From Clostridia bacterium (GTDB taxonomy: Bacteria; Bacillota; Clostridia; Christensenellales; QALW01): 64,000 bases of DNA. Under the pieces are notes generated by a model. That model made no database searches. It had not been told where the DNA came from and worked only from the letters and a program-made list of their open reading frames with translations. Both the position numbers and the translations under genes were made by a program. Positions 1 through 39,592 of the stretch are shown here, piece after piece. How positions within the stretch are numbered: the stretch's first letter is position 1; every line of letters begins with the position of its first letter. The DNA lies in NCBI GenBank assembly GCA_017516345.1, contig JAFXDC010000065.1, forward strand, positions 481-64,480, written 5' to 3'.

Positions 1-4
1 GCAC

Positions 5-180
5 GGGGAGCCAAAAAATTCCGTACACGCGAGTGTGCGGAATTTTTACTTATTACCTCTTCACTCTTCACTTTTCACTAATTTGGCGTGTACGGAATTT
101 TAGGTAAGAAGTAATAGTGAATAGTGAAGAAGTAATGGTTGATTTGCTTCACAAATCTTTTTTAATAAGTTGCAATTCCG
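5..180 (+). repeat. Structured intergenic repeat, copy 1 (hairpin, pyrimidine-rich heptad arm, distal complement, purine-rich arm, small hairpin)
   Basis: aaaattccgtacac (15-28) can pair with gtgtgcggaatttt (33-46) and perfectly with the distal gcgtgtacggaatttt (86-101). The T/C-rich arm 47-80 has a ~7-nt period (ttcactc ttcactt ttcacta) and is mirrored by the A/G-rich arm 102-138. A gatttg/caaatc hairpin lies at 141-157. Nearly identical to 2364-2545. Confidence 0.8.
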
Positions 181-223
181 TTCTATGATCACATATTGGG
201 GCAACAATTTTGCACCCTAACAC

Positions 224-258
224 AAAAGTCCTTGATTTTCAAGGACTTTTTGTTTTTT
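224..258 (+). terminator. Rho-independent terminator of an upstream + strand gene lying outside the window
   Basis: aaaagtcctt (224-233) / aaggactttt (241-250) form a 10-bp stem with a 7-nt loop, followed by a T-run. Confidence 0.6.
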
Positions 259-337
259 GGGGGTGAAAAATAACCCCTTTCACCATTGCACCTTTTCTTG
301 AACCTTATGGACTTGAACCTGCGACTTTAGCAAATTC

Positions 338-366
338 TTGAAATTTATTTATGATTGTGATATAAT
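338..366 (+). promoter_or_regulatory. Sigma-A type promoter of the GH78-like gene
   Basis: TTGAAA (338-343), 17-nt spacer, TATAAT (361-366) preceded by TGa (extended -10). A conserved upstream block (gcaccttttc...cttatggacttgaacc, about 282-320) recurs at 2633-2666. Confidence 0.6.
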
Positions 367-412
367 GTATGAGTATGATTAATTCTTGAAATACGGAAAG
401 GAATACCGAGAT

Positions 413-2329
413 ATGGTTAAAAATATTTTCAAAAAAGCAAACTGGATATGGTGCGAATCCGAAGGACAGGCAGATGAATACGGCGAATTCTATTCCTCGT
501 TCAACTATGACGGAGAGAAAAATGTAAAATTGAAAATATCCGCGGACAGTAACTACGCGGTCTATATCAACGGCAAATTTGAGGTCTTCGGGCAGTACGC
601 CGATTTCCCTTACGATAAAATATACGACGAGGTCGATATTACAAAATTCTGCAAAAACGGCAAGAATCACGTTGCCGTTATAGTCTGGTATTTTGGTATA
701 ACAACGACTTCAGTCTATTACAAAGGAGAGGCTTCCCTTATTTTCGAAATAACAGAGGGAGAAAATGTTTTGTGCTTCAGCGGCGAGCAGACTCTTTCAC
801 GCCTTAGCCGTACCTACGATCAGCATGTATGCAAGATCATCACGGGTCAGATGGGGCTTTCCTTTAGCTACGATATGACAAAAGAGGACAAGTGGAAGAT
901 GGGAGAACTTTGCGGATTTTCAAACAGCGTTATCGTTTCAAAGCATCCATCTTGCCGAATTCGTCCGAATGAGAAGCTCGTCCTTGAAAAAAAGGTTTTG
1001 GGAAAAGAAATAAAGCGCATATCCGATAGCGATGTTATTTTTGAGCTGGGAAGTGAGCAGGTCGGCTTTGTAAGTATTGATATAACCTCTGATACCGAGC
1101 AAGATATTTTGGTAGCTTACGGTGAGCATATTGTGGACGGAAACGTAAGACGTATCATCGGACCAAGAGATTTCAGCTTCAAGATTCGTTTGCGCAAGGG
1201 AAAAAATAAGTATCTCAATCCATTTCGTCGTTTGGGGGCGAGATATTTGGAGATAAAATCTGAATCTCCCGTGACGGTAAACGAAGCGGCAATCACGCCG
1301 ACCATGTATCCCGTAACTCTTAAAACCAAGCCTGAGCTTAACGAATATCGCTCGAAAATATACGATATCTGCGTAAACACACTGCGTCTCTGTATGCACG
1401 AGCATTACGAGGACTGCCCCTGGAGGGAGCAGGCGCTCTACTGTATGGACAGCCGAAATCAGATGCTCTGCGGTTATTATGCCTTCGGTGAATATAAGTT
1501 TCCGCGCTCCTGCCTTGAGCTTATATCAAAGGACGACCGTAAGGACAGGCTTCTTTCCATATACTATCCCGTAAATAACGATTATTGTATTCCTTCGTTT
1601 TCAATTCACTATATAACCGAGTGCATAGAATACCTGCAGTATTCAGGAGATAAAGCGTTTATTGAGGAGATATATCCAAAGCTTGAAAGTGTTCTTTCCG
1701 CCTTCCTTGAAAGACGCGAAAACGGACTTGTGCCGATTTTTGAAGGCAAACAGTACTGGAATTTCTACGAGTGGAGCTACGGTCTGGACGGTAACGGCAT
1801 AGGATACGAGCTGCCGAAATTCGATATCATAATGAACGCGCTGATCTCTATTGCCCTTGAAAATATGGGCAAGATCGGAGATATGCTGGGTAAGCAGAAC
1901 CAATATCGCGATAGGATCCCCGAGATCAACCGTCGCATAAGAGAAGAGTTTTGGGATGATGAAAAGGGCATATTTGCGGACTGTCCGGACAAAGCCAGAT
2001 ACAGCGTTCTCGGCAACTCTCTGGCGATTCTTTGCGGAGCAGCGGAGGATCCCAAGGGAGTATGTGAAAGAATGCTTAATTTGGAAGGCGTGACGGATAT
2101 CTCTCTCAGTATGCGTTGCTTCAAGTACGATGCGATGTTGCTTGCTGACAAGGGGAAATACAAGGAGTCTATCTTTTCCGAGATCGACGAAAATTACAGA
2201 CCTATGCTTGAGCTTGGCAACGGGACCGTTTGGGAAACGGATGAGGGCGAAAGTGATTTTGGAAAGGCAGGAAGCCTTTGCCACGGTTGGAGCGCTATGC
2301 CGATATATTACTACAATATTTTATCATAA
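413..2329 (+). CDS. Alpha-L-rhamnosidase-like (GH78-like) six-hairpin glycoside hydrolase, cytoplasmic
   Basis: ORF 386-2329. ATG 413 behind GGAAAGGA is the more likely start. N-terminal 'ANWIW...ADSNYAVYINGKF' sandwich. The 'EDCPWREQALYCMD' motif resembles the DCPxRE..GW.GD motif I recall from GH78. Same architecture as 22171-24366. No signal peptide. Confidence 0.6.
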   Translation: MVKNIFKKANWIWCESEGQADEYGEFYSSFNYDGEKNVKLKISADSNYAVYINGKFEVFGQYADFPYDKIYDEVDITKFCKNGKNHVAVIVWYFGITTTSVYYKGEASLIFEITEGENVLCFSGEQTLSRLSRTYDQHVCKIITGQMGLSFSYDMTKEDKWKMGELCGFSNSVIVSKHPSCRIRPNEKLVLEKKVLGKEIKRISDSDVIFELGSEQVGFVSIDITSDTEQDILVAYGEHIVDGNVRRIIGPRDFSFKIRLRKGKNKYLNPFRRLGARYLEIKSESPVTVNEAAITPTMYPVTLKTKPELNEYRSKIYDICVNTLRLCMHEHYEDCPWREQALYCMDSRNQMLCGYYAFGEYKFPRSCLELISKDDRKDRLLSIYYPVNNDYCIPSFSIHYITECIEYLQYSGDKAFIEEIYPKLESVLSAFLERRENGLVPIFEGKQYWNFYEWSYGLDGNGIGYELPKFDIIMNALISIALENMGKIGDMLGKQNQYRDRIPEINRRIREEFWDDEKGIFADCPDKARYSVLGNSLAILCGAAEDPKGVCERMLNLEGVTDISLSMRCFKYDAMLLADKGKYKESIFSEIDENYRPMLELGNGTVWETDEGESDFGKAGSLCHGWSAMPIYYYNILS

Positions 2330-2363
2330 GATTTTTAATGACTTCTAAAAGGTTTGAAATTGT

Positions 2364-2545
2364 TGGGGGAACTCAGAAAATTCCGTACACGCGAGTGTGC
2401 GGAATTTTTACTTTTTACCTTTTCACTCTTCACTTTTCACTAAATTGGCGTGTACGGAATTTTAAGTAATAGGTAAGAGGTAATAGTGAAAAAGTAAAGA
2501 TTGATTTGCTTCGCAAATCTTCATTTTATTAAGTTGCATTTTTAT
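2364..2545 (+). repeat. Structured intergenic repeat, copy 2 (same orientation as copy 1)
   Basis: Core aaaattccgtacacgcgagtgtgcggaatttt starts at 2377, followed by heptad arms, the distal complement gcgtgtacggaatttt and the gatttg/caaatc hairpin. Aligns base-for-base with 5-180 with few changes. Confidence 0.8.
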
Positions 2546-2550
2546 ACTAC

Positions 2551-2596
2551 GAGCCCAAAAGAAAACCACCCTGATGGGTGGTTTTTCTTTTGGCTC
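2551..2596. terminator. Bidirectional hairpin terminator (member of a repeated hairpin family)
   Basis: gagcccaaaagaaaaccaccc tgat gggtggtttttcttttggctc, with T-runs in both orientations. Its reverse complement recurs at 8081-8116. Confidence 0.6.
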
Positions 2597-2683
2597 TTTC
2601 CTTTTTTAGGCTGTTTTTTGACCTTTCTTTTTTGCACCTTTTCCCCAAGCTTATGGACTTGAATCCACGACATTTTCGCACGT

Positions 2684-2712
2684 TTGAAGATCGCCTGCTT
2701 TTCTGATATGAT
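2684..2712 (+). promoter_or_regulatory. Orphan copy of the GH78 promoter, pointing into the 3' end of araC
   Basis: TTGAAG (2684-2689), 17-nt spacer, TATGAT (2707-2712) preceded by TGa. It sits 33 nt downstream of the ttatggacttgaa motif, the same distance as in copy 1. No + strand ORF follows. Confidence 0.45.
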
Positions 2713-2751
2713 ACAGTCAGAAAGCAAGCGAGAAGTTGTCGAAAATAAATA

Positions 2752-3555
2752 TCACCATTTTAAAAATTTCACGGAAGGAGAGATTCCGAAGCGCTTTTTA
2801 TAATGTCTATAAAAGCACGAATAGTCCGAAAAACCATATTTTGAGCAAGCTTCGGTCGGCGATAGACCGGATATAATATCTTTGTGGGCATAAATTAACT
2901 TTTTTTCGATGATATATTTATATAACGGCATATGTATGTCTGTTTTAAAAGCGTGCATTATGCTTGAGCGTGAATAATTCAGGTTGCTCGATATATCTGC
3001 AACCGTTAATGAAGAACAAAGATTTTGGTTTATATAATTTAAGCATTTTTGAGTGATCGTACTGAATTTTGAAGATATATATTCTTCACTTGGATTCAGA
3101 TGTCCAAGTTCTACCAACACAGAAAGAAGCTTGGCGGGAGCAAGAATCTTTTTTTCTGAAAGGGAATATTTATTATCGTCAAGAGAGGTGAAATCGCTTA
3201 TGATATTGTCGGGCAACGATTCAATAACGCTTACGCATGTCATATTTTTGAAGATCAGCGAATTCATTTCTCTTGTGTTGTAAAAATTGAACACATACCT
3301 TTCATAATCAACCTCGTCACCATGAACGTGAAAGCGGTGAAAGGTGTTTTCCGGAATTACAATAAGAGTGTATGGCTTTAGTTGAATGGTTTTTTGTTCT
3401 GTTGTAAAAAAAGCCTCTCCGCCTATGAAAAGAAAAATTTCGTGAAATTGGTGAAATTCTTTTCCAAAAACATCGCGCATTCCCTTGGCGTGCTTATACT
3501 TGATGTCCGATGTTTGCACGATGTGCTCGAAGGTATTTTTCATATATAGCCTCAT
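2752..3555 (-). CDS. AraC/XylS-family transcriptional regulator (cupin sensor + C-terminal double HTH)
   Basis: 267 aa. N-terminal cupin-like 'HEIFLFIGGEAFF...FHRFHV' and C-terminal AraC HTH ('...SRSSIMHAFK...SPTEACSKYGFSDYSCFYRHYKKRFGISPS'). The alternative ATG at 3543 has the better AGG spacing. Confidence 0.85.
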   Translation of the reverse strand: MRLYMKNTFEHIVQTSDIKYKHAKGMRDVFGKEFHQFHEIFLFIGGEAFFTTEQKTIQLKPYTLIVIPENTFHRFHVHGDEVDYERYVFNFYNTREMNSLIFKNMTCVSVIESLPDNIISDFTSLDDNKYSLSEKKILAPAKLLSVLVELGHLNPSEEYISSKFSTITQKCLNYINQNLCSSLTVADISSNLNYSRSSIMHAFKTDIHMPLYKYIIEKKLIYAHKDIISGLSPTEACSKYGFSDYSCFYRHYKKRFGISPSVKFLKW

Positions 3556-3672
3556 TATGTATTATTTTGTTTTCATTATAACATGAAAATGCACAAATTA
3601 CAATTTAATATAACAAAATAACAATATAAATTGTTATTAATGTCATGTATAATTACAAAATGAAGGCGCTTA
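3522..3672. repeat. Divergent control region, copy A (araC 5' end plus intergenic region)
   Basis: About 150 bp nearly identical to 5041-5192. Contains a perfect 8-bp inverted repeat ataacaat-ataa-attgttat (3618-3637), a candidate operator. Confidence 0.85.
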
Positions 3673-3704
3673 TACTGAGTATAAGTAAATATGGAGGAAT
3701 GATT

Positions 3705-4790
3705 ATGAAGATCTTTGAAAATGGCAACACAAGCATTACGCTTTTGCCCGAAAACGGTATTCTTTTTGTAGACCACGAAAAGAACAATCGTAGCGGACAT
3801 TTGGGACATGCAATGGTACAATGCAAAAATGGGGATATTCTTTGCTTCTATCCGAACTGCAATACCGACGGATACGGACATTCCGGACGAGGTTGGATGG
3901 AATACACCCGAAGCACAGACGGCGGAAAGACGTTTTCCGCTGCAGAACCGTTCCCATATTCCAAGAGCCTCTATGATTTAAATATAGGCTATACCTCAAT
4001 GAACGAAAAGGCGGTGTGTGCTCCCGATGGAAGCATAATCGTATTCAATCTGATCTGCGACGTCATCAATACACCACAGTGGGAACCGTTTATGCGTCCG
4101 ACCTATCTGCGCAGCACCGATAACGGCTACACATGGAGTGATGCAAGGGTCTTTTGCCCATATCGCGGTAGGATCTATGACGTGCAGGTGATCGGCGAGC
4201 GTATCTACGTGCTTTTCTCGGGAGGTTGGAACGATACTGACAGCAATCGCTTTTTCTTGTACGTAAGCGAAGACAACGGCGTTACCTTTTTCGAGCATTC
4301 AAGACTCCCCTTTGCCAAGGGAACAACGGAGCGCTTTTACGGAACGATGGAGCAACTTGCCGACGGCAATCTTATTGTGTATACTTACAATCTTAGTGAT
4401 GAATTCAGACTCGAGTATACGTTGACTTCCGCAGACGCGGACGGATGGTCCGAGGTAAGGCACGCATACTTTAAGCGCCGCATTCGCAATCCGCAGATGA
4501 TTCGCTACAACGGAGCATATTTTATCTTTGGCAGAAGCGGAAGCTACGGTGCGCTATCCGAAAAGGAGCATTTTATATGCTATACCTCGTCGGACGGCAT
4601 AAATTGGGATGAAGGAAGATACGTTCTGCCTTGCACCGGCTGTATCAATGGCATGGGTGGCAACGGTGCATATTCAAACACGTTGCGCGTTAATTTTGAC
4701 GGCAAAGAAAGAATACTTGTGCAGGTTTCGCATGCTTACTATATAAATCAGACCAACGTTTTGCATTTTTGGCTTGACGCTGAGAATTAG
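3705..4790 (+). CDS. BNR-repeat sialidase-like (exo-alpha-sialidase fold) protein, no signal peptide
   Basis: ORF 3645-4790. ATG 3705 behind GGAGGA. Asp-box/BNR motifs are STDGGKTF, STDNGYTW, SEDNGVTF and SSDGINW. Confidence 0.7.
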   Translation: MKIFENGNTSITLLPENGILFVDHEKNNRSGHLGHAMVQCKNGDILCFYPNCNTDGYGHSGRGWMEYTRSTDGGKTFSAAEPFPYSKSLYDLNIGYTSMNEKAVCAPDGSIIVFNLICDVINTPQWEPFMRPTYLRSTDNGYTWSDARVFCPYRGRIYDVQVIGERIYVLFSGGWNDTDSNRFFLYVSEDNGVTFFEHSRLPFAKGTTERFYGTMEQLADGNLIVYTYNLSDEFRLEYTLTSADADGWSEVRHAYFKRRIRNPQMIRYNGAYFIFGRSGSYGALSEKEHFICYTSSDGINWDEGRYVLPCTGCINGMGGNGAYSNTLRVNFDGKERILVQVSHAYYINQTNVLHFWLDAEN

Positions 4791-4877
4791 GGTACTGCTT
4801 GGCTTTTGTGATATAATATAAACAAAAATGGAGTTGGCGTTTATACGTTTGCTCAGACCTGTTGGGGCAAGCTATCA

Positions 4878-5074
4878 TCAAGAATATTGGATCCCCGCCG
4901 AGCTTTGGCGGTTGTGTATCTGCTTCTTGAGCTGCTTGTCATCCGCAAGTTTCCCAAGCATGAAAGGATCAGGAGGAGCTTGTTTAATTCGGATATCTAT
5001 TTTACCGACAGCACCTCCAAGGAATATTTGGGCCAAGAGATGTACTCGAAGGTATTTTTCATATATAGCCTCAT
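4878..5074 (-). pseudogene. Decayed 5' fragment of a second araC-type regulator
   Basis: The start region MRLYMKNTFE is identical to araC at 3555, but the frame stops after 25 codons. A shifted frame continues with cupin-like '...IFLGGAVGKIDIRIKQ...' and ends at 4878. No HTH part remains. Confidence 0.7.
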
Positions 5075-5192
5075 TATGTATTATTTTGTTTTCATTATAA
5101 CATGAAATGCACAAATTACAATTCAATGTAACAAAATAACAATATAAATTGTTATTACTGTCATTTATAATTATGAAAAGGAGGCGCTTATG
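5041..5192. repeat. Divergent control region, copy B
   Basis: Aligns with 3522-3672. The same 8-bp inverted repeat lies at 5136-5155. Followed by AAAGGAGG and the ATG at 5190. Confidence 0.85.
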
Positions 5193-6905
5193 AAGATTTT
5201 ACTTTTGGATTTTGGGAGTAGTTTTGTAAAATATTCTTTTTACGATACCGAGACAAGAACAAACACGCAAGTGTTTTCATTAGAGTTTCCGCAGCCTGTT
5301 ATAGATGCCGACGGTCACTATGAGGTGGATCACCGTAAGATAGACGAGATCTTGTGGCGTATTATGAAGGAGGCGGAATTAAATGAATGTGCTGCGGCTT
5401 TTATTTGCGTTCAAATGCACGGATATCTTTTGAAATATCAAGGCACGTTTACAAATTATATTTCTTGGAAGGATAAACGCGGGCGCGCATATTTGAATTC
5501 TGCTGAAAAGAAAGCACTTTTTGATAATGGAACTCAACTTAAGGAAAATCTGCCTCGCGTATCGTTACGTGATCATGCATCTGTTGAAGGTAGGGAATTC
5601 TTTACGCTTGGTTCATATATTTCATATATCTTGACGGGGAATAACGTAACTCACATTACCGACGCATGCGCCAGCGGATTGTTTCATGTTAATACATGTA
5701 CTGCGGACAACCCGTTCGAGGGGCTCTCGCTTCCGACGGCGGTCAGAGAAATGAAGCCTTGCGGAAAATACAAAAATATTCACATATATCCTCCGATGGG
5801 TGATCATCAAATCAGCTTTCTTGGTGCAAGGGCATTTGAAGGAGAAGCGGTGTTGAATCTTGGAACCTCGGCTCAGTTATCGTTATTGGTGGATGAGGAC
5901 ACGGACTGCTTAGACGGAATGGAATACAGACCGTATTTTGTTAAAGATCATCGAATTGCAACCCTTTCGGGAATCAGCGGATCAGATGCGGAGGCAATTG
6001 TTTCGGGGATAAAAAGCTTCGCAAATGCATTTGGAAAAACGAAGTGCATTTTGGTAAGCGGAGGCGGAGCGAAGGATAAATATGATTATTTTGTCTGTGA
6101 ATTTAAAAAGCTGGGGTACAAAGTTGAGAGATGTTATCAAAACGTTGGTAACGAGGGACTCAAAAGGATTGCGGAAGGTGTCTATTCTCGACGCGGCACA
6201 ATGCTTTCAGAGGTCGAATTTGTTAATTTCCCATTTGTTCTGAAAAAAGCAAAAGTAGACTTTTTCATCATAGACAACGAACATGGAAGCTTTGAAAACA
6301 AAACGGTGATGGCGCTTGCAACGAACGCCAATGCTGTTGATGTTCAAGCGATAGTAAGATTGCCGAATAATGACAGAGCAATGATCACGAAGCTTGCCGA
6401 CGGGGGTGTCAGGGCCTTTCTGTTACCTATGACCAATCGAAAAGAGGATATAGAAAGGGTGGTTGAATACGCAAAGTATTCCCCCGACGGTAAAAGGGGA
6501 GTTTCAACTACAAGAGCGCATACGGGCTACGGTGTTGCGGATATCAAGGAATATATGAAGAGCGCAAACCGAAGAATGAAGATCTATGCGCAAATAGAGA
6601 CCCGCATTGGCGTGGAAAATGTTGAGGAGATATTGAACGTACCGGGTGTTGAGGGGGTTTTTATAGGTCCTAACGATCTTTCCTGCGACTACAATTGTAT
6701 GGGTGAAACGAAAAAAATCAAAGAATTAATTTCTGTCATCTGCAAGCAGTGTCTAAAAAAAGACAAGCCCTGTGGCATTATTACCACAGATAAAGAACTC
6801 ATAAAGCACGCACTGCTATGTGGCTGTTCAATGGTAAGCTATGGTAGTGAGATCAATATGTTAATAAAAGGAGCGAGGGAGATAACAAATGAAAAATATC
6901 TGTAA
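5190..6905 (+). CDS. Fusion protein: FGGY-type sugar kinase (N-terminal) :: HpcH/HpaI-family 2-keto-3-deoxy-acid aldolase (C-terminal)
   Basis: 571 aa. N-terminal 'LLLDFGSSFVK', 'ISWKDKR' and 'GDHQISFLG' are FGGY/ASKHA-like. The C-terminal ~240 aa 'FFIIDNEHGSF...RLPNND...LLPMTN..EDIERVV...YAQIETRIGVENVEEI...GVFIGPNDLS' match my memory of the HpcH/HpaI aldolase family. Confidence 0.65.
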   Translation: MKILLLDFGSSFVKYSFYDTETRTNTQVFSLEFPQPVIDADGHYEVDHRKIDEILWRIMKEAELNECAAAFICVQMHGYLLKYQGTFTNYISWKDKRGRAYLNSAEKKALFDNGTQLKENLPRVSLRDHASVEGREFFTLGSYISYILTGNNVTHITDACASGLFHVNTCTADNPFEGLSLPTAVREMKPCGKYKNIHIYPPMGDHQISFLGARAFEGEAVLNLGTSAQLSLLVDEDTDCLDGMEYRPYFVKDHRIATLSGISGSDAEAIVSGIKSFANAFGKTKCILVSGGGAKDKYDYFVCEFKKLGYKVERCYQNVGNEGLKRIAEGVYSRRGTMLSEVEFVNFPFVLKKAKVDFFIIDNEHGSFENKTVMALATNANAVDVQAIVRLPNNDRAMITKLADGGVRAFLLPMTNRKEDIERVVEYAKYSPDGKRGVSTTRAHTGYGVADIKEYMKSANRRMKIYAQIETRIGVENVEEILNVPGVEGVFIGPNDLSCDYNCMGETKKIKELISVICKQCLKKDKPCGIITTDKELIKHALLCGCSMVSYGSEINMLIKGAREITNEKYL

Positions 6906-8052
6906 TAATTGGGATCTGAAAAATTATCCGTATATTAATTTGACGCCGGATGATTCCGTAAGCGAGGAGCATCGCGCGTGGCAGGGGTGTCCAACCGTTG
7001 CGGTGACAAAAAAAGGCAGAGTGTTTGCGGGATGGTATACCGGAGGTGCATTTGAGCCCTGTATTGGCAACTATAATGTTCTTGTAAAAAGCGACGATCA
7101 CGGTAAAACATGGTCATCTCCTCTTCTTACCGTAGCAAGCGATGAGCAAAACAGGCTTCGCAAGATAGATATCGAGATCTGGGTGAATGAGGATAACTCT
7201 CTATGGATCATGTGGACGGTATCGCCTTATGGTGAAAAATCCTTGCCTGCTACCATCAGAACCCCTTTTGTTTTTGATTATCATCGTGAATTTCTCTATA
7301 CTGAGGTTATGATATGCAGAGATCCTGATGCAGATGAGCTGGTTTGGGAGAAGCCTCGTATGATGTGCGAAGGCTTTATGAGAAACAAGCCCATCGTTAC
7401 CTCCGACGGTAGGATCATCGCCCCTGCGTACGATTACGGCAGTGAGCAGTATAAGCTTCGTTACTCTGATGACGGTGGTGAGAGCTTTTATAATGTTGCA
7501 GTTGACGGAAAGCCCGATGCGAACATTTACGATGAAATAACCGTTTGCGAGCGACGTCCGGGCAAGCTGCGTTTTTTAGCGCGAACCAAGCGCGGCTATT
7601 ATGTATATTCGGATTCGTTCGACGGCGGTAATTCGTGGACCGATGCAAAAGAATACGAGGAGGCGCCGGGCACAAGGTGTTATTTGGGAAAGCTGAAAAA
7701 CGGGATGACCGTTTACGTGCGAAATATATCCAATACCCAAAGGAACGGTATGAAGATATGTCTATCCGAGGATGGCGGCGATACCTTCCTGTGCGAAATG
7801 GTGCTGGATGATCGCGAAAGCTTATCGTATCCCGACCTTGATGAGGATGAGGAAGGAAATATTTATATCGTTTACGACCGTGAGCGTGATAACCGCATAA
7901 AGCTGAATAGAGAAACGTGGATTTCGGAAGCGGCAAAAGAGATCATTGTCTGCAAAATTACGATTGATGACGTGATGCGTAATACATTATCTAAAGGCTC
8001 TTTTTTAAGAAGGATCATAAGTAAGGCAAGAATAGACGTGGCGGAAGCTTGA
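6889..8052 (+). CDS. BNR-repeat sialidase-like protein, no signal peptide
   Basis: 387 aa. Asp-boxes are SDDHGKTW, SDDGGESF, SFDGGNSW and SEDGGDTF. Its start overlaps the upstream gene by 17 nt. Confidence 0.7.
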   Translation: MKNICNNWDLKNYPYINLTPDDSVSEEHRAWQGCPTVAVTKKGRVFAGWYTGGAFEPCIGNYNVLVKSDDHGKTWSSPLLTVASDEQNRLRKIDIEIWVNEDNSLWIMWTVSPYGEKSLPATIRTPFVFDYHREFLYTEVMICRDPDADELVWEKPRMMCEGFMRNKPIVTSDGRIIAPAYDYGSEQYKLRYSDDGGESFYNVAVDGKPDANIYDEITVCERRPGKLRFLARTKRGYYVYSDSFDGGNSWTDAKEYEEAPGTRCYLGKLKNGMTVYVRNISNTQRNGMKICLSEDGGDTFLCEMVLDDRESLSYPDLDEDEEGNIYIVYDRERDNRIKLNRETWISEAAKEIIVCKITIDDVMRNTLSKGSFLRRIISKARIDVAEA

Positions 8053-8080
8053 AAATCAGTTACATTTTTATGCCATGATC

Positions 8081-8116
8081 AAAAAACCACCCATCAGGGT
8101 GGTTTTCTTTTGGCTT
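8081..8116. terminator. Hairpin terminator (inverted copy of the 2551-2596 hairpin)
   Basis: aaaaaaccaccc atca gggtggttttcttttggct, which is the reverse complement of the copy at 2551-2596. Confidence 0.6.
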
Positions 8117-8156
8117 ATCTTGCCGACACAAACAAACAAAGACCCGTAACCAACAG

Positions 8157-8278
8157 CCAAAGCCCCAAGGACGAAAGCTCTTAGGGCTTACTTCTTACCT
8201 ATTACCTCTTCGCTCTTACCTCAAAAACGTCCTAGGGGCTTTGGAAAGTAATAAGTAATAGGTAAGAGGTAATAAGTA
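8157..8278 (+). repeat. Structured intergenic repeat, copy 3 (same architecture, different stem sequence)
   Basis: ccaaagccccaaggacg (8157-8173) is complementary to cgtcctaggggctttgg (8228-8244) at 16 of 17 positions. Pyrimidine heptad arm 8189-8223 (tacctat tacctct tcgctct tacctc) and purine arm 8245-8278. Shares aagtaataggtaagaggtaata with copy 2. Confidence 0.75.
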
Positions 8279-8490
8279 TTTTGCAAGTTTGCCTTGTCAT
8301 TTTTGTTTTATAATGGAAAATAATAAGGTATAGTATTCTAAACGGGACTGATTTGATTCCTCGGTAGGGGGTATATGGATTTAAATGTAAAAAAATTCTT
8401 TATTTTTCTTATAAAATTCTTTACAAAATAAAAAAGTAGTAATATAATTCTAATGGTAATCCCAATCTTTTCTTTAAGGAGTTTATAAAT

Positions 8491-9308: not shown

Positions 9309-9377
9309 ATTTCAGATCTTCTTTTTTGTTTAGATATTATTAAAGCAGAAAAATAAAAAAATTCTCTTGACAAATGC

Positions 9378-9419
9378 ACTCTAATGCGTTAGACTATAAT
9401 CACTCTAATGAGTTAGAGT
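9378..9419. promoter_or_regulatory. Two tandem 18-bp dyads, candidate BlaI-family operators
   Basis: ACTCTAA-tgcg-TTAGAcT (9378-9395) and ACTCTAA-tgag-TTAGAGT (9402-9419), 24 nt apart. A TATAAT hexamer (9395-9400) lies between them, directly upstream of the repressor gene. Confidence 0.5.
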
Positions 9420-9441
9420 ACAATGAGGGGAGGTAAAAAAC

Positions 9442-9804
9442 ATGGAAACGCCCAAGATATTTGAAAGCGAGTACAGGTTCTGCCTTATTCTTTGGGAGCA
9501 CGAGCCCATCAGGAGTGCGGAGCTTGTTGAGCTTTGCAACCAAAAGCTGGGATGGAAGCCCACGACTACATATACCGTGATCAAAAGACTGTCCCAAAGA
9601 GGTGTGGTAAAGAACGAGAAAAGCGTTGTAAGCGCCATTATAAGCAAGGAGGAGGCTCAGGCGGCAGAGATAAGCCGTATGGTGGAAAACACCTTTGAGG
9701 GTTCATTACCCGCCTTTATAGCGGCATTTACGAAGCATCAGAGGCTAAGCGAGGACGATGTCGAAGAGGTAAGCAGGTTGATAGATCACTACAGGAAGGG
9801 GTAG
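9442..9804 (+). CDS. BlaI/MecI/CopY-family winged-helix repressor
   Basis: 120 aa. 'ESEYRFCLILWEHEPIRSAELVE...TTTYTVIKRLSQRGVV' and genetic linkage to an M56 sensor gene. Confidence 0.8.
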   Translation: METPKIFESEYRFCLILWEHEPIRSAELVELCNQKLGWKPTTTYTVIKRLSQRGVVKNEKSVVSAIISKEEAQAAEISRMVENTFEGSLPAFIAAFTKHQRLSEDDVEEVSRLIDHYRKG

Positions 9805-9808
9805 AGCT

Positions 9809-11443
9809 ATGGCGGAGATATTTATCAAGATATTAAATATGAGCATAGCGGCCGGCTATATCATTATTGCGGTATTGATACTCAAGCTATTGCTTAAAAG
9901 GATCCCCAAGTGGATAAATACCCTGCTTTGGGGCTTTGTAGCACTGCGTCTTGTGTGCCCGTTTAATTTTGAAAGCATTCTCAGCCTTATTCCGAGCGCT
10001 CAAACCGTAAGTCCCGACATTATGAACCATACTGCACCCTCGGTGGATTCGGGTATTCCTGCGTTTAATAATGCAGTGAATCCTATAATAGAGCAATCCT
10101 TCGCGCCCAAGGTAGGGGACAGCGTAAATCCATTACAGACAGTGCTTCCCGTTGTGGCCTCGTTGTGGGCGGTGGGTGCCTTGGGCATGCTGATATACGC
10201 CGCAGTAAGCTACGTTATCCTTGCGCGTAGGGTGAGTACCGCAGTAAGGCTTAAGGATAACGTTTATCAAAGCGAAAGAGTTGTCTCACCGTTTGTTCTT
10301 GGAATCTTTAAACCGAGGATATATCTTCCGTACGAGCTTGACGGTGACCATCTTGCCTTAGTGCTTGCGCACGAGCAGGCTCATATTAAAAGATCGGACC
10401 ATATTTGGAAGCCCATAGGCTTTATTTTGTTGGCGTTATATTGGTTTGATCCTCTTATTTGGGTCGCATACGTTATGCTTTGCCGTGACATCGAATTTGC
10501 GTGCGACGAAAGGGTCATAAAGGATATGGACCGTGAAAAGCGAGCGGATTATTTGCAGATACTGCTTGCGCAAAGCGCGAGACAAAGAGTGATCTCGGCT
10601 TGCCCGGTAGCATTTGGAGAGGTAGGTGTAAAAGGAAGAATGAAAAAGATAATCAGTTATAAAAGGCCCTCCTTTTGGGTGATGATATCTGCGGTGCTTT
10701 TGGCTGCAATTATAGCGGTGTGCGGGCTTACTGACCCGATAAGCAAGCGCCTGGGAAGCATTGACGGTCTTAATATTAATTTTGACGCCACGGTGTTTTT
10801 CAGTCACGCCTCTCCCGAAGCCGATATGAATATCGCACAAAAATGCGAGCCAAGCAATATCAGGGAGCTGTTTGACCTTAAGATATCCTCAACTGCGGTG
10901 TCGAACGATCTTAGCGACAACAGGGATAAGACCCATAGCCTCCTGCTTTCATCAAACGGTGATGCCATTGGTGTTTATTTTAACGCTGATTTTACTGCAG
11001 TCTATCTTGGGATCGAGGATAAGCTCACAAGCTCCTATAGGGTCAAGGATCCAAATGCGGCAAGAAGCGTATATTATAAAATAAGCAAAAGGATAAATAT
11101 AGATGCACTCAAGCAAAAATATCCGAGCTGCTTTGAGATATCCACGTTCAAAGGACTTGAGGTATGTATTTGGCAAATGGCGAAGGATTCCTATTACTGC
11201 TTGCTGTTGCCCGGAAAAAACAGCATATATACAAATCAAGAGCTGTGGAGTATGCATAACAATGCGGTAAGGCTTTCGGATATGCAAAGGATAATTACCT
11301 ACTATATCTTAGTAGGAGAGGTGGAGCGCGACGAGGTTTTCATCCATCCCATAACAATGCCGCATTCAAGCTATGCATATAATATTGATGGTGATTACGT
11401 CGAAAAAGTAAATAACATCTTTTGGTCGGAGATATCTTACTAA
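9809..11443 (+). CDS. BlaR1/MecR1-like M56 membrane metalloprotease sensor with a non-PBP C-terminal domain
   Basis: 544 aa. N-terminal TM helices and the zinc motif 'LAHEQAHIKRSDHIWK'. The C-terminal ~250 aa show no SxxK/penicillin-binding signature. Confidence 0.75.
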   Translation: MAEIFIKILNMSIAAGYIIIAVLILKLLLKRIPKWINTLLWGFVALRLVCPFNFESILSLIPSAQTVSPDIMNHTAPSVDSGIPAFNNAVNPIIEQSFAPKVGDSVNPLQTVLPVVASLWAVGALGMLIYAAVSYVILARRVSTAVRLKDNVYQSERVVSPFVLGIFKPRIYLPYELDGDHLALVLAHEQAHIKRSDHIWKPIGFILLALYWFDPLIWVAYVMLCRDIEFACDERVIKDMDREKRADYLQILLAQSARQRVISACPVAFGEVGVKGRMKKIISYKRPSFWVMISAVLLAAIIAVCGLTDPISKRLGSIDGLNINFDATVFFSHASPEADMNIAQKCEPSNIRELFDLKISSTAVSNDLSDNRDKTHSLLLSSNGDAIGVYFNADFTAVYLGIEDKLTSSYRVKDPNAARSVYYKISKRINIDALKQKYPSCFEISTFKGLEVCIWQMAKDSYYCLLLPGKNSIYTNQELWSMHNNAVRLSDMQRIITYYILVGEVERDEVFIHPITMPHSSYAYNIDGDYVEKVNNIFWSEISY

Positions 11444-11574: not shown

Positions 11575-11846
11575 GTAAATGCGATTGAGCAAGAACAAGT
11601 AGGCTATGGCAGAACCTTAAAGAGAGTTGTCGGTTGGTGCAAGACGATGGGGGAGCTTTGGTTGAATTCATCTTGTCAGCAGTGCACCGAACGTATTCAA
11701 GTAGGCTGCAACGGGTGTTCCCGTAACAGAACAAGGGTGTTGCTTGACACTCTAAAAGGTCGTGATCGTGAGAGAGCGATAAATTGAGGTGGTACCACGG
11801 GTCTTCTCGTCCTCTGTATTCTGTTTTGAATATAGAGGACTTTTTT
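11575..11846 (+). promoter_or_regulatory. T-box riboswitch leader, probable Phe (UUC) specifier
   Basis: Stem I start tgcgattgagcaagaa, AG box agagag (11621-11626), distal-loop ggtgcaag. Specifier-loop context gaa-TTC-atcttgtcagca (UUC at 11667-11669) parallels what I recall as glyQS 'GAA-GGC-ACUUCGAGCA'. T-box sequence aaattgaggtggtaccacgg (11781-11800). Terminator gtcctct...agaggac + T6 (11809-11846). Confidence 0.85.
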
Positions 11847-33414: not shown

Positions 33415-36400
33415 TCATTCGTTGCTCGTTGCTCTCTTTGGGATCTTTAAAACGCCGTCACGGGTGATGATGTTGTAAAAATATGCGATCTCACGTCTGT
33501 TGCCGTTTACGTTAGCATATATTCGTACGCTTCGTATGGCGTTTTTCACAACGTCTCCGGGATTGATGGCCTCTCCCGAAACGGTGACCTCAAGCTCGTG
33601 CCCCGGAACAAGACTGCCGCTTACTATCCACCAGTTATCGTTTGTAAGGGGGGTGCCGTCATAGGGCTTGGAATCCGACGCCGACTGAATGATCAGATCC
33701 CTTTTAAGGATGGTCATGGTGCCGTCAAGCAGGGTTATGCTTCCGTATGATGCAGTCACGTCCTGCCCGTTTTCATCAAGAATCGCAAAGCTTGTTATCT
33801 TGTTGGGATATATGCCCGGATCTGTCTGTCCGTATCCCGATTCGCTCATGGTGATGCGCACGGTGTGACCGGGCAGCAAATATCCGTTAAGCACTCTGTA
33901 GGGGGTCTCGCTCCAACGGCTGAAGGTCTTGCCGTCATATTGCTTTGTAAGGCTGTAGGCCTGAATGGCAAAGCCTTCGGTCTCGGTGTCTTGACCCGGA
34001 TAGTCCTGAGGATGCATGGCGGGGGTCACGTCTACGGGTACCCAACCTACCGAATCGATAAATACCTCTACCCAAGCGTGTCCAACACGGAGCGGAGTAT
34101 ACTTCTTTGAGTTTACCTCGGATGCATATCCCACGACGTATCGCGAGGGTATACCGAGAGCTCGGAACATCATGGTGCCTGCACAGGCAAAGTGTTGGCA
34201 GATGCCGCGCTTTGCCTTGGTCAGGAAATATACTGCTATATCCTCCTTCGCCGCGGCGTTATTATAAAGCGTGTTCGCCCCCAGATCGTATTGTGCTGCG
34301 CTTGATATGTATTTTTTTACCGCCTCTATGGTGCTTACGATGTTGCCCGTATCAAGTCCGTTTTGATATGCGATCTTCTGCATTGCAAGACGGGTGGAGT
34401 CGGGGATCTGCAAATATTGAGAGTAAACAAATTGAGTATAATCTGTTATGCCGTCATCATTTTTCAACACTTTTCTTAAATTATACAGTTCGTTGTAATT
34501 TAAGAGGTTGTAAAAATCGAAGGTATATTCGTTGGAGCTTCCGGTAAAGTATATGTCGTTTGCCCCATAGCGCTCGGCAGAATCATAAGTAAAGTAGGGC
34601 GCAAGTATCAGATCGGGATCCTTCGTAGCAATGGATATCTTAAGCCTTGTGGAATCTCCGTACTTTGTCTTTATTCTATGACCAACGTAATCAAGCGGAG
34701 CAATGTGGTCCGGAGCAAGCTTGTTTATGCTATAGGGAACACCTATCGTGAAACCGTCGCCCGTATAATCTCCGTATGACGAATGGCGAAGATACGCAAC
34801 GGTATATATCGCATGGTCGCTGATCAGCTTTATTTGAACCTTGGGCTCTTTTGATATTTTGCTCGGATCAACAAAGCCAATACCTACGTACCCGGGAGGC
34901 TGGCTGCTACCGCCGCTGCTACCGCCACCGCTACCGCCGCCGCTTCCACCGCCGCTACCGCCGCCGCTACCGCTACCGCTTCCACCGCCGCTTCCACCGC
35001 TGCTACCGCCGCTACCGCCACCGCTATCGCCACTATTACCGCCCGGGGAAGGGGGTGTGGCGTCGGAGGGAAGAACGGTTATAGTGCCAAAGCTGTAGGT
35101 GATTATGTAGCACCCTGTGGTGTCCTCGTTGCCACTTTGAGTTGAGCGCATGCTTACTGTAAAGTAGTTGGGGCTCTGTCCAACCTCGGTCTGACTTCCC
35201 GTATAGTGCGGAAGTATCATATCTGTGCTTATAAGCTTACCTGAGGTAATGGTATATGAATAGCAGGTGAGAGGATAACCCGTGTACCTTCCGGTAATAC
35301 TACCCGAGAGCAATGATATTTCGATGGGATCGACGGTCAATGTGCCCTCATCCACTATAATATTGTATCCCTCATCGGTAACCTCCCTGCCGTTTTCATC
35401 CTTTATCACAACGTTGAGCGAGTTGGGGGAGATCCCCGCAAGGGTCTGACTTCCGTCGGTATGGCATTGCATGGTGTGATTGGGTAAGAGCTCGCCGCCC
35501 GTGTGCTTAAAGCCGGAGTGGGTCAAGGGTGTGCCGTCGTAAGACTTGGAGGCTGATTCTGTAGTGAAGGTCAATACTATCGGGCGTATCTCAATGGTTC
35601 CGGCATCCTGAATTAAGGTGTAGTTTTTGGTTACGTCCTTTCCGTTATCGTCAACGACCATTATGTCAAAATAGTTGGGATACTTGCCCCACGTCGTGAC
35701 GGGCGAGGGGGTTGCTATAATACGGTGACCCTCAATAGGCTTGCCGGATACAAGCTCCCAGTTGCCGCGGTCCACCGCAATGCCGTCGTAGTCCTTGGAT
35801 ATACTGGAGGTTTTTATGGTAAGGGTGATGGGCTTTATCTCCAGCTTTCCCGCCTGAATCTTTACGGAATATTTGCTTGTTACGTCCTTGCCGTCCTTGT
35901 TGGTTATACTGTAGGAGGTTGGGGTTATTACGTGTGTTCCCGCGTTTTCACTATAGCTTTTAACGGAAACTCTTAGCGAGTCGCCCTCTGCCAATGAGCC
36001 CTTGGTTATTTTGTAGGTTACGTTAAAGTCGAGCTTGCCGTCGTAGGTCTTGGTGATGCTACTAAAGCTTAAGGTAATGCTTCGGGGGATGATCCTGTAG
36101 CGCATATCGACCCGCTCAAGATCGTATCCCTCGGTGACGTCGGTACCGTACCTGTTAACTATTCTTATAGAGTTGTTTAAAACCATAAACAAATTGGAGC
36201 CGCTGCCCATCTCTGATACCCTCATGCTTGCTACGTCAAGACGGTCTCCTTGGGCAAGACTGTTCGCAACGGTTTTTTTGGATATGAGATCATATACACT
36301 CTCGCCGTATTCGCATTGCCCATTAAGTGTTAAGGTCAGCGGTCGCTTTGCGAGCATAAACGTGGTGCTGTTGCTGTAGCGAACCGTTCCAAATGGGCTT

Positions 36401-38203: not shown

Positions 38204-39592
38204 CTAAAAGCCCTTAGATAATTTGTTGATGTATTCCTTGCTGAGGGGCAACGTCTCCGCACCGAATATCCTGTCCATGCATGCCGTAAGGTCGTCAAGC
38301 ATGCTTCTGACGTACGCGGGATTGATCTGCTCAAGCTTTCGCAGTATCTTGCGGCAGATCATGTCGTCAAGTGCCTCCTCCTCGGTGGCGCCGCAGGCAA
38401 GCATTATTGGAACGTAGCGCTCTATCTGACCCATCATTCGGTTTCCTATGGCTATCCTGAATGCCTGATTTAAATACTCATCAAGGCTTATAAGGGCATA
38501 TCTTGCTCCCTCGGAAAGACGGTATTTGCTTCTTGCGTTGTTAAAAAGCCGGGTAAGCTCTGCGTACGATATATGGCACGCGGTGGATGGCTTGCACACA
38601 AACGGAGAGCACTTTTTATCAAGATCCAGGACCGCCGCACGGTCGTATACCTTGTCGGATATCGCAAAGGTGGAGTCGTCGTTGTTTGCTGTGCCCACAA
38701 ACCACATATTCGGAGGCAGTAAAAGCTTACCGCCTTTAAGTCGCTTGGGATCGCGGCCCCAGGAGTCGGATACCACGTCGAGATATCTTCTGTGCTCGGG
38801 AAGCTCAAGAAGAGAGAGAAACTCTGCAAAATAATACTCGATCCTTGCGATGTTTACCTCGTCAAGCACTGTGATAAATACGTCCTGTCTTCCGCCGGCC
38901 TCATAGAGCTTGCACAGCATGGTGGTCTCGTTGAACTTTTTGGTAAATTCGTTAAAATAACCGATCATATCCGAGCGCTCCTTCCACATGGGCTGGATGG
39001 GAACTACGGTGGATGGGTTTGCAAAATATTCGCCCGCAACGTATGCAAGGGAGGTCTTGCCGGTTCCCGACATACCGCGAAGCAGTATAAGCCTGGATAT
39101 TCCCATGCCTCCTATGAATCTGCGCACGTCCTTTATGTCATAGTAGAGCTTGTGCTCGCATGCAGCATAACGCTGAAAATCAACGCACAGCTTCTCAAGA
39201 GTATCCACGGTGTCAAAGCGGGCGTTAGCGTGCTTTTCCAGCTTCTTATCAAGTGCGGAAAGGGCGGGGAAGCGTACTATTTTTCCCTTTTTTACGGGCT
39301 TTTTCTTTTTGAGCCTTTTGATTCCGAGATTCTTGTATTCCCTGTAGGATCTGATACAGTATACCGATGCGCAGGCAAGCAGAGCCGCAAGCCCAATGGG
39401 AAGGGCTATGGCAAATACCACCAGGGCATTGGCAAGCTCGGTATTGGCAAAATCTGCGGCAATATGCTCCTTTATAAGAGCAGAGGTGTTGGGATACTGA
39501 AGTAATAATAAATAAAATGCTATGCTCACGACGTATATGCCTGCCGCAACGATTATAATAAACCTCTTTATTGCTTTGGTTTGGTCCTTCAT
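38204..39592 (-). CDS. Membrane-tethered McrB-family AAA+ GTPase, paralog 1 (two N-terminal TM helices)
   Basis: 462 aa. TMs 'FIIIVAAGIYVVSIAFYLLLL' and 'ALVVFAIALPIGLAALLACASVYCI'. Walker A 'GMSGTGKTS'. 'VLDEVNIARIEYYFAEFLSLLE' resembles the McrB pattern 'IDEINRaN..kifGEl..LlE'. 'PPNMWFVGTANNDDSTFAISDKVYDRA' resembles 'P.N..iIGTMNtaDRS'. RBS AGGAGG. Confidence 0.75.
   Translation of the reverse strand: MKDQTKAIKRFIIIVAAGIYVVSIAFYLLLLQYPNTSALIKEHIAADFANTELANALVVFAIALPIGLAALLACASVYCIRSYREYKNLGIKRLKKKKPVKKGKIVRFPALSALDKKLEKHANARFDTVDTLEKLCVDFQRYAACEHKLYYDIKDVRRFIGGMGISRLILLRGMSGTGKTSLAYVAGEYFANPSTVVPIQPMWKERSDMIGYFNEFTKKFNETTMLCKLYEAGGRQDVFITVLDEVNIARIEYYFAEFLSLLELPEHRRYLDVVSDSWGRDPKRLKGGKLLLPPNMWFVGTANNDDSTFAISDKVYDRAAVLDLDKKCSPFVCKPSTACHISYAELTRLFNNARSKYRLSEGARYALISLDEYLNQAFRIAIGNRMMGQIERYVPIMLACGATEEEALDDMICRKILRKLEQINPAYVRSMLDDLTACMDRIFGAETLPLSKEYINKLSKGF
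38327..39165 (-). repeat. Paralogous AAA+ core segment, copy 1
   Basis: Aligns without indels to 41377-42215 (constant offset 3050 nt) with long runs of identical bases. Confidence 0.9.

Follow-up and report, generated by a model that had tools for sequence, protein, structure and literature searches.

The 23S rRNA intervening sequences of Coxiella, Leptospira, Brucella and Xanthomonas relatives are the closest described architecture to the element considered here. In Coxiella, the intervening sequence holds an open reading frame (ORF) for an S23p protein within a 28-bp terminal inverted-repeat stem that is cut by RNase III (PMC4990558). Intervening sequences are regarded as selfish, with mobility unknown (PMC4990558), and for about 30 years neither a function nor a means of mobility has been known for them or for their S23p/PF05635 proteins, a group related to the Avd protein of diversity-generating retroelements; both S23p and Avd are homopentameric (PMC4990558, PMC10053308). 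Here we describe a non-coding module from a 64,000-nt stretch of a Clostridia bacterium genome (assembly GCA_017516345.1, contig JAFXDC010000065.1, positions 481 to 64,480; hereafter the window), with emphasis on its third copy, at 8157–8279 on the + strand. Our preferred reading, to which we assign a probability of roughly 55%, is that this region is copy 3 of a tRNA-trailer module of Oscillospirales, that the 3' end of tRNA operons is the ancestral home of that module, and that the copies in the window represent an intervening-sequence-like cassette without its ORF.

Copies of the module were collected by pattern scans of public collections, directed at one heptad arm (P) and at the junction of the A' segment with the other arm (R), followed by nhmmer on the fetched loci. 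This gave ~135 copies in 281 fetched loci (identified below by L numbers), and the order of parts is constant among them: over ~170 bp, a CCA, a hairpin H1, arm P, segment A', arm R and a small GC hairpin, H3. In every copy, a segment A is followed directly by its imperfect complement A'* and a T-run, and A and A'* together make up H1. After H1 come the G-free pyrimidine heptads of P, a short A-rich spacer, A', the C-free purine heptads of R, and H3. A' ends in TTTGG, which pairs with the CCAAA of A, and the two inverted-repeat pairs (A/A' and the heptad arms) interleave, running A, P, A', R.

A hidden Markov model built from family members and run with nhmmer finds just three copies in the window, all within 8.3 kb and all on the + strand. 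Copy 1 (11–163) has its CCA at 11–13, H1 at 14–46, P at 46–80, A' at 86–101, R at 102–138, and H3 at 141–157 followed by a T-run. Copy 2 (2351–2519), which is 89% identical to copy 1 across 155 nt, starts with a decayed tRNA 3' relic at 2351–2376 (GGTTTGAAATTGTTGGGGGAACTCAG; score 1.8, above the 99th percentile of controls) and continues with H1 (2376–2409), P (2408–2442), A' (2448–2463), R (2464–2499) and H3 (2503–2519). The opening of the window, gcacggggagCCA, likewise resembles a tRNA 3' end; genuine tRNA-Asn genes in L261 and L279 end in gggggagCCA. A tRNA 3' end, or the relic of one, precedes copies 1 and 2; copy 3 lacks such a relic. An exact-protein look-up of a GH78-like gene, made for the flank left of copy 1, found no record.

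Copy 3 is laid out as the other two are. An inverted-repeat search places its segment A (CCAAAGCCCCAAGGACG), which runs from the CCA through a short A-run into the 5' arm of H1, at 8157–8173; folding and segmentation place H1 (AAGCCCCAAGG, a loop, and TCTTAGGGCTT) at 8160–8189. The five pyrimidine heptads of P (TTACTTC, TTACCTA, TTACCTC, TTCGCTC and TTACCTC) occupy 8188–8222. A' (CGTCCTAGGGGCTTTGG; 8228–8244) lies in the loop between the heptad arms and is reverse-complementary to A, with the CC of the CCA taking part (17 nt, 94%). The C-free purine heptads of R, complementary to P, extend over 8245–8279, as indicated by the minimum free energy (MFE) hairpin and a shared 22-mer, and a degenerate H3 (GCAAG..CTTG) with a T-run forms the 3' end of the module at 8281–8304. 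H1 is degenerate as well, with one C.A mismatch and an interrupted U-tract (CUUACUUCUU), and was not called by a simple terminator scan. An intact H3 (GCAAGGCTTTGCCTTGC and a T-run) is present in L070, L118, L126, L152 and L187; homology of copy 3 to L118 spans 8156 to 8316, and its stem type (GCCCC) recurs in L016, L065, L118, L125, L126, L157, L161, L184 and L265. A scan for consensus promoters gave no support for a promoter inside the module, the real-looking ones lying further downstream at 338–366 and 8420–8448.

The first-pass annotation had singled out copy 3 for a swapped stem sequence within a kept layout, and in this it was right. Where copies 1 and 2 carry AAAATTCCGTACACGC (15–30 and 2377–2392) and its exact complement (86–101 and 2448–2463; no chance matches expected), copy 3 has CCAAAGCCCCAAGGACG and CGTCCTAGGGGCTTTGG, 54 nt apart at the same relative places and complementary at 16 of 17 positions. 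The 22-nt stretch that it gave as common to copies 2 and 3, AAGTAATAGGTAAGAGGTAATA, is indeed exact at both 2464–2485 and 8253–8274, and the heptad arms are homologous as proposed, the P arms of the three copies sharing 88–92% identity (8 matches, where 0 are expected). Its explanation, compensatory replacement of a whole stem in place, does not survive comparison with the family: the swap between copies 1/2 and copy 3 is an exchange between pre-existing module subtypes that recur in many genomes. It also overlooked the interleaving of the two inverted-repeat pairs and a nearer partner, given that A pairs in every copy with the sequence adjacent to it (31–46, 2393–2408 and 8179–8189) to form a local hairpin.

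That local hairpin, H1, shows much stronger covariation than A:A'. Applied to 79 copies aligned with MAFFT, RNAalifold returned five H1 pairs and nothing more, because stem lengths and heptad registers vary; covariation was therefore counted on gap-free segments anchored at the A-run/T-run junctions. Counted in this way, H1 cells are paired in 98.6% of cases with a covariation score of 0.94, a level reached by none of 500 shuffles, and sliding the arms by 1–3 columns leaves at most 54.6% paired. All eight H1 pairs show changes on both sides. G.U pairs number 119–126 on the + strand vs 4 on the - strand, and the free energy is -19.9 kcal/mol on the + strand vs -15.3 on the other, the + strand being the more stable in 93/98 copies. 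Strong covariation with G.U pairs on the + strand only argues that H1 acts as RNA on that strand, and it is for H1 only that the RNA level is settled.

H1 has further attributes of an intrinsic terminator: a GC-rich hairpin with a U-tract (a T-run follows the 3' arm in nearly all family copies), a co-oriented position at the 3' end of a transcription unit, and a structure kept on that strand. The H1 of copy 2 (2376–2409) was called terminator-like by the scan, and copy 1 has the same stem. Bidirectional intrinsic terminators have an A-run and a T-run, and H1 resembles them: its GC-rich hairpin is set between two such runs where a transcription unit ends, and it shares with terminators both conservation of structure alone and G.U pairs on the + strand. 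Together, these comparisons show H1 to be a predicted terminator-type RNA hairpin on the + strand, with a stem that evolves freely by compensatory change. It differs from ordinary terminators in that its 5' arm has a second complementary partner ~70 nt downstream, itself with a U-tract; to our knowledge, no such second partner is known for ordinary terminators.

This second partner, A', is conserved as complementarity rather than as sequence, as had been proposed. Among 74 distinct copies, A:A' cells are paired in 76.4% of cases vs 53.9% when shuffled, and none of 500 shuffles reaches the observed value; the covariation score is 0.534 vs 0.174 shuffled, and sliding by 1–3 columns leaves at most 48% paired. 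About nine stem types occur, each with a matching A'. A' matches its own type in 41/68 copies, whereas 20,000 permutations gave 9.2 matches on average and never more than 21. The A:A' duplex comprises the CC, the A-run and 5–6 variable bases (up to 12), beyond which pairing falls toward background; A' itself is 12–17 nt long. At sites where A'* departs from Watson-Crick pairing with A, A' shows the complement of A in 50 cases and agrees with A'* in 6, so A' is tied to A and not copied from A'*. The same counts rule out A' as a direct duplicate of A'* of the kind that a target-site duplication would leave. Mismatches between A and A' include 17 G.U and 17 C.A, with no G.U bias. These patterns show A' to be retained as the Watson-Crick complement of the terminator 5' flank, switching type along with H1. 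Such three-way covariation, of A with A'* and with A', is unusual and, if functional, would represent a new coupling of a hitchhiking cassette to a host terminator.

The first-pass annotation had taken the covariation as evidence for one selected fold, in RNA or single-stranded DNA. Complementarity of A and A' is indeed kept, but the preferred partner of A is the adjacent A'*, and the RNA level is indicated for H1 only, the mismatches of A:A' being unbiased. In all three window copies, and on either strand, the MFE fold consists of H1 and a long P:R hairpin with A' in the loop; forcing A:A' in the full element costs 6–15 kcal/mol relative to it. When the transcript ends just after A', the A:A' helix is the MFE structure in 3/3 window copies and 33/97 family copies, and once R is added H1 and the P:R hairpin win. 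A:A' and P:R cannot coexist, because they are interleaved, with linkers of 0–5 nt beside stems of 13–17 and ~30 bp; a single conserved fold is therefore ruled out. The linkers and stem lengths also rule out a simple H-type pseudoknot. We consequently consider it very improbable that the module is one structured non-coding RNA, or a single-stranded DNA, with a fold that holds A:A' together with the heptad arms: the significant covariation of A:A' and its prevalence in the intermediate transcripts of the window copies would fit such a structure, but the incompatibility of its two helices, the energetic advantage of H1 with P:R, the recovery of H1 pairs alone by RNAalifold and the lack of an Rfam match at the copies do not.

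The setting of the module among its relatives points to tRNA operons. The hosts belong to at least 40 species of Oscillospirales and gut Clostridia (Acutalibacteraceae, Oscillospiraceae, Ruminococcus and further Clostridia), with the guts of ruminants and humans as their source; window positions 5–2284 are 99.3% identical to L051, from Clostridia bacterium RGIG6430, which represents the species in GTDB. ARAGORN places the start of 51/104 assessable copies precisely at the encoded CCA of the tRNA gene that closes an operon, on the same strand, with 14 specificities represented. Copies away from tRNA genes keep the CCA, and 29% of them have an upstream tRNA 3' relic score above the 99th percentile of controls. 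Small islets separate a tRNA gene from a relic with its module in L118, L126 and L188. In the last of these (L188:252–660), a tRNA-Arg gene is followed by two tandem ~150-nt units, each a plain terminator with a tRNA 3' relic, before the module, an arrangement that resembles the scar of repeated events.

Searches for a prior description returned little. Rfam gave no match at the copies at gathering or permissive thresholds, with sub-threshold hits at a chance level of 23–28 bits vs the 50–85 needed; BLAST of a typical copy found no match in phage records and, among plasmids, only an unrelated heptad microsatellite beside stcE of the E. coli pO55 type. Full-text literature searches, sequence strings included, found no description of the module family or of the heptad rule for PF05635 proteins set out below. 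The module is therefore apparently undescribed, and it is widespread in gut Clostridia. The plasmid microsatellites (L281; E. coli pO55, NC_013942.1:12822–15854) are R-arm-like, occur many times in pO55/pO157-type plasmids beside stcE, and are apparently unrelated.

The heptad arms lead back to the intervening sequences. Unlike A and A', they are conserved as sequence in the family alignment; P consists of five heptads in 74/98 copies, and five is also the commonest count for R. The sole recurrent neighbour of the module is a protein of ~115 amino acids predicted as a four-helix bundle of PF05635, the 23S rRNA intervening-sequence protein family (Pfam E-values of relatives 1e-22 to 1e-26), encoded on the same strand and starting 0–80 nt after R. 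PF05635 genes or fragments lie 3–150 nt after R at ~36 loci. In L203 and L216, a terminator and a further P arm come after the PF05635 gene, such that R and P enclose the ORF, and in L052 (Ignavibacteriae) and L102 (Bacteroidota), both found via the heptad pattern only, heptad inverted repeats also enclose a PF05635 gene.

The same arrangement is recovered when the sampling is reversed. In an independent set of viral-contig loci (L282–L317) fetched by PF05635 protein homology alone, 12/24 distinct PF05635 loci carry period-7 tandem repeats (in one case period 8) immediately before the gene, with the reverse complement of these repeats immediately after it. Lineages differ in the unit that is repeated (GACAATT, TAACCTA, AATTCGT, TTGAAAA, TTTTGAG, AAAATAG, GCAATCC and others), and one of the loci, L282, is a full family module behind a tRNA gene, with a new stem type and a matching A' of 17 nt. 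Flanking heptad inverted repeats thus look like a general and undescribed rule for the PF05635 family, and the gene neighborhoods show that the arms of our module belong to a PF05635-associated cassette that appears to be built like a 23S rRNA intervening sequence. The analysis in this way ties intervening sequences and PF05635 to a large, sequence-diverse family at the tRNA operon ends of abundant gut Clostridia, and it offers a simple structural rule, heptad inverted arms, mostly of five heptads, around a PF05635 gene, that is directly testable. Five heptads per arm and a homopentameric S23p/Avd protein also suggest one heptad per subunit.

The likeness and its limits can be stated in parallel. 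Both the 23S intervening sequences and the relatives of the module have a PF05635 gene between inverted repeats with a stem of ~28 bp, in a highly expressed stable-RNA unit, the module relatives in the order R, ORF, terminator, P. However, intervening sequences sit inside an rRNA helix, whereas the module lies in the trailer of tRNA operons or in other intergenic DNA; its arms are tandem heptads, usually five, and it carries an extra A' matched to the host terminator. The window copies have no ORF and show the junction order P-A'-R, and RNase III excision is described for the 23S type only. A homologue search of the window found no PF05635 gene. ORF-less variants with R, a terminator with a T-run, and P occur in a Ruminococcus metagenome-assembled genome (L047:6290–6400) and in Clostridium amylolyticum (L146, minus strand, ~4350–4450); each folds as one long hairpin, of -32.7 and -32.9 kcal/mol respectively (z ~ -6).

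Taken as an ORF-less cassette in a tRNA trailer, the module would act on transcripts that read through H1. In these, P and R would zip into a duplex of ~28–30 bp, which by analogy with the RNase III-cut intervening sequences would separate the stable RNA from downstream RNA. A' would offer the terminator's 5' arm a second partner with a better match, either permitting a second attempt at termination at its own U-tract or forming a guide-like loop that masks the 5' arms of terminators of the same type. The module also recalls transcription attenuators, including countertranscript-driven ones, in that A has two mutually exclusive partners and the weaker local helix forms first. In the module, however, the alternative partner lies downstream of the complete terminator, and A' therefore cannot be a classical cis antiterminator.

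Several observations weigh against this preferred reading. Termination at H1, RNase III processing and the role of A' are all unproven predictions. The P:R helix lacks an excess of G.U pairs on the + strand, with equal free energies on both strands and, in fixed register, 57 T.G vs 135 C.A, and it therefore fits poorly with simple selection on a + strand RNA. The significance of the shuffles is inflated by kinship, such that the independent covariation events number about nine, the count of stem types, rather than the number of copies. A:A' helices are of 12–14 bp in most copies and are the intermediate MFE structure in one third only. Chimeric copies with the A' of another type (L016, L040, L144 and the second copy in L131) persist. 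The window arms run P then R with only A' between them, not R-ORF-P; the R of copy 1 with the P of copy 2, and the R of copy 2 with the P of copy 3, do flank cargo genes, but with a generic complementarity, and because of the P-A'-R order the window copies are not simply ORF-deleted intervening sequences. Finally, copy 3 sits behind a gene with its own terminator (8083–8106); given this position and its degenerate H1, it may be decaying.

Much of this evidence also bears on the possibility that the module is a palindromic DNA repeat of the REPIN or miniature inverted-repeat transposable element (MITE) kind, that is, a non-autonomous element with A/A' and P/R folding in single-stranded DNA, an enzyme encoded elsewhere, and terminator activity as a side effect. 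The absence of a + strand G.U excess from A:A' and P:R, unlike H1, and the symmetric pattern of mismatches would be expected of such an element. So would modules 92–99% identical that follow different tRNA genes and are sharply bounded between the CCA and ~+175, metagenome contigs that break at copies, chimeric copies consistent with recombination between modules, and partial copies, such as the H1 and H3 without P-A'-R behind a tRNA-Cys gene in L118 or the H1 and P alone in L071, L073, L081, L112 and L134. REP/BIME/REPIN, ERIC, BOX and Correia elements are likewise dispersed, hairpin-forming non-coding mosaics of palindromic units downstream of genes with no transposase nearby, and REPIN arms show correlated changes. 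We nevertheless regard this alternative as unlikely. Among 848 neighbouring ORFs within 5 kb of ~100 copies, no recombinase or transposase recurs, including RAYT, Y1 transposase clusters and integrases; long downstream regions hold only ordinary genes by Pfam; and no target-site duplication was seen flanking P..R or A..A'. The arms are inverted repeats as in MITEs, but the flanking duplication and a transposase-bearing relative are both missing. Copies within one genome are just 64–89% identical, and a protein-recognised A/A' would have its variable inner bases drift independently. The module further departs from REP-type elements in its link to the tRNA CCA, its heptad arms, its interleaved second repeat, and PF05635 in the place of RAYT. 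An origin by nested insertion is ruled out, since the repeats are interleaved and nested insertion cannot produce interleaved inverted repeats.

The distribution of copies along the chromosome raises the alternative of an attachment-site arm, with small islands integrating at tRNA 3' ends and same-strand arrays recording successive integrations by an integrase encoded elsewhere. Copies in multi-copy loci are co-oriented everywhere except L230, the window included, with cargo genes between them and tRNA 3' relics upstream of the non-first copies. Copy 3 lies in a segment (8114–8319) between two strain breakpoints, since L159, which encodes the same BNR protein, departs from the window at ~8113, and four strains with the same NagB (L001, L005, L006 and L007) align from 8320 onward only and lack everything to the left. 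This scenario, which we consider improbable, would account for the arrays but not for the terminator-matched A'; no integrase is found in window positions 1–8320 or in or near the other islets, at least 14 tRNA specificities are too many for one integrase family, and type-variable A/A' are unlike protein-recognised core sites. Integron attC sites and cassette arrays offer a related parallel, with structure kept while sequence varies, same-strand elements that separate cargo, and strain variation at cassette borders. Yet attC is a nested palindrome (R''/L''-L'/R') with RYYYAAC and GTTRRRY boxes, whereas the module is interleaved and ends in CCAAA and TTTGG, its loci lack intI or any integrase, and its arrays begin at a tRNA gene. 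Chance complementarity of AT-rich heptad microsatellites, which the first-pass annotation had named as what might undo its claim, has a practically negligible probability. The search patterns did pick up heptad arrays with no relation to the module, from Bacteroidota, cyanobacteria and E. coli plasmids, and complementarity of the arms is indeed generic by composition (21.5 matches to the own partner vs 20.8 to those of other copies), but no matches are expected by chance in the window, the order of parts is constant throughout the family, and the permutation of A' types with the covariation of A:A' and H1 refutes it.

A more ambitious version of the preferred reading would treat PF05635 genes with lineage-specific inverted arrays of ~five heptads as a single, widespread class of selfish cassettes of stable-RNA operons, with 23S rRNA and tRNA trailers as two habitats, a homopentamer that reads five heptads, one per subunit, and A' as a reprogrammable guide of 12–17 nt. 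A' would then be presented by a loop whose hairpin cannot misfold and would base-pair with the host terminator along its 5' arm, whether to override or re-use that terminator for expression of the cassette or to target insertion beside a terminator of matching type. We offer this as speculation with a low probability. At a practical level, the module explains both assembly breaks and strain-variable islets beside tRNA genes in metagenome-assembled genomes of Oscillospirales. Hairpin arms of degenerate heptanucleotide repeats in a tRNA-linked transcript are also described for the P6b region of the Nostoc tRNA-Leu(UAA) intron (PMC4476775). P6b differs in organism and sequence, lies inside a group I intron, and has no terminator or PF05635 gene.

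The remaining observations concern other features of the window. Near the module, two terminator hairpins at 2561–2596 and 8083–8117 are mutual reverse complements (AAACCACCC TGAT/ATCA GGGTGGTTT). In L159, the inverted flank of the 2561–2596 hairpin abuts the end of the BNR gene, which suggests inversion or recombination between the two. A non-coding duplicate of ~155 nt (3520–3673 and 5039–5191; 91–99% identity) precedes a BNR gene (3645–4790) and a kinase/aldolase fusion (5190–6905) and is likely a shared promoter or leader region. Two 24-nt direct repeats (CACTCTAATGCGTTAGACTATAAT and CACTCTAATGAGTTAGAGTACAAT) stand side by side at 9377–9424, a short way before genes for a BlaI/MecI-type repressor (9442–9804) and BlaR1 (9809–11443), and are probably the operator of these genes. 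The sole Rfam match above its gathering score is a T-box leader (RF00230, 111.7 bits) at 11575–11817 on the + strand, upstream of AMP-binding and ACT-domain genes from 11876. A GC-rich array with a 12-nt period (34877–35050) and a duplication of 80–90% identity (38310–38897 and 41360–41947, 3050 nt apart) are both unrelated to the module.

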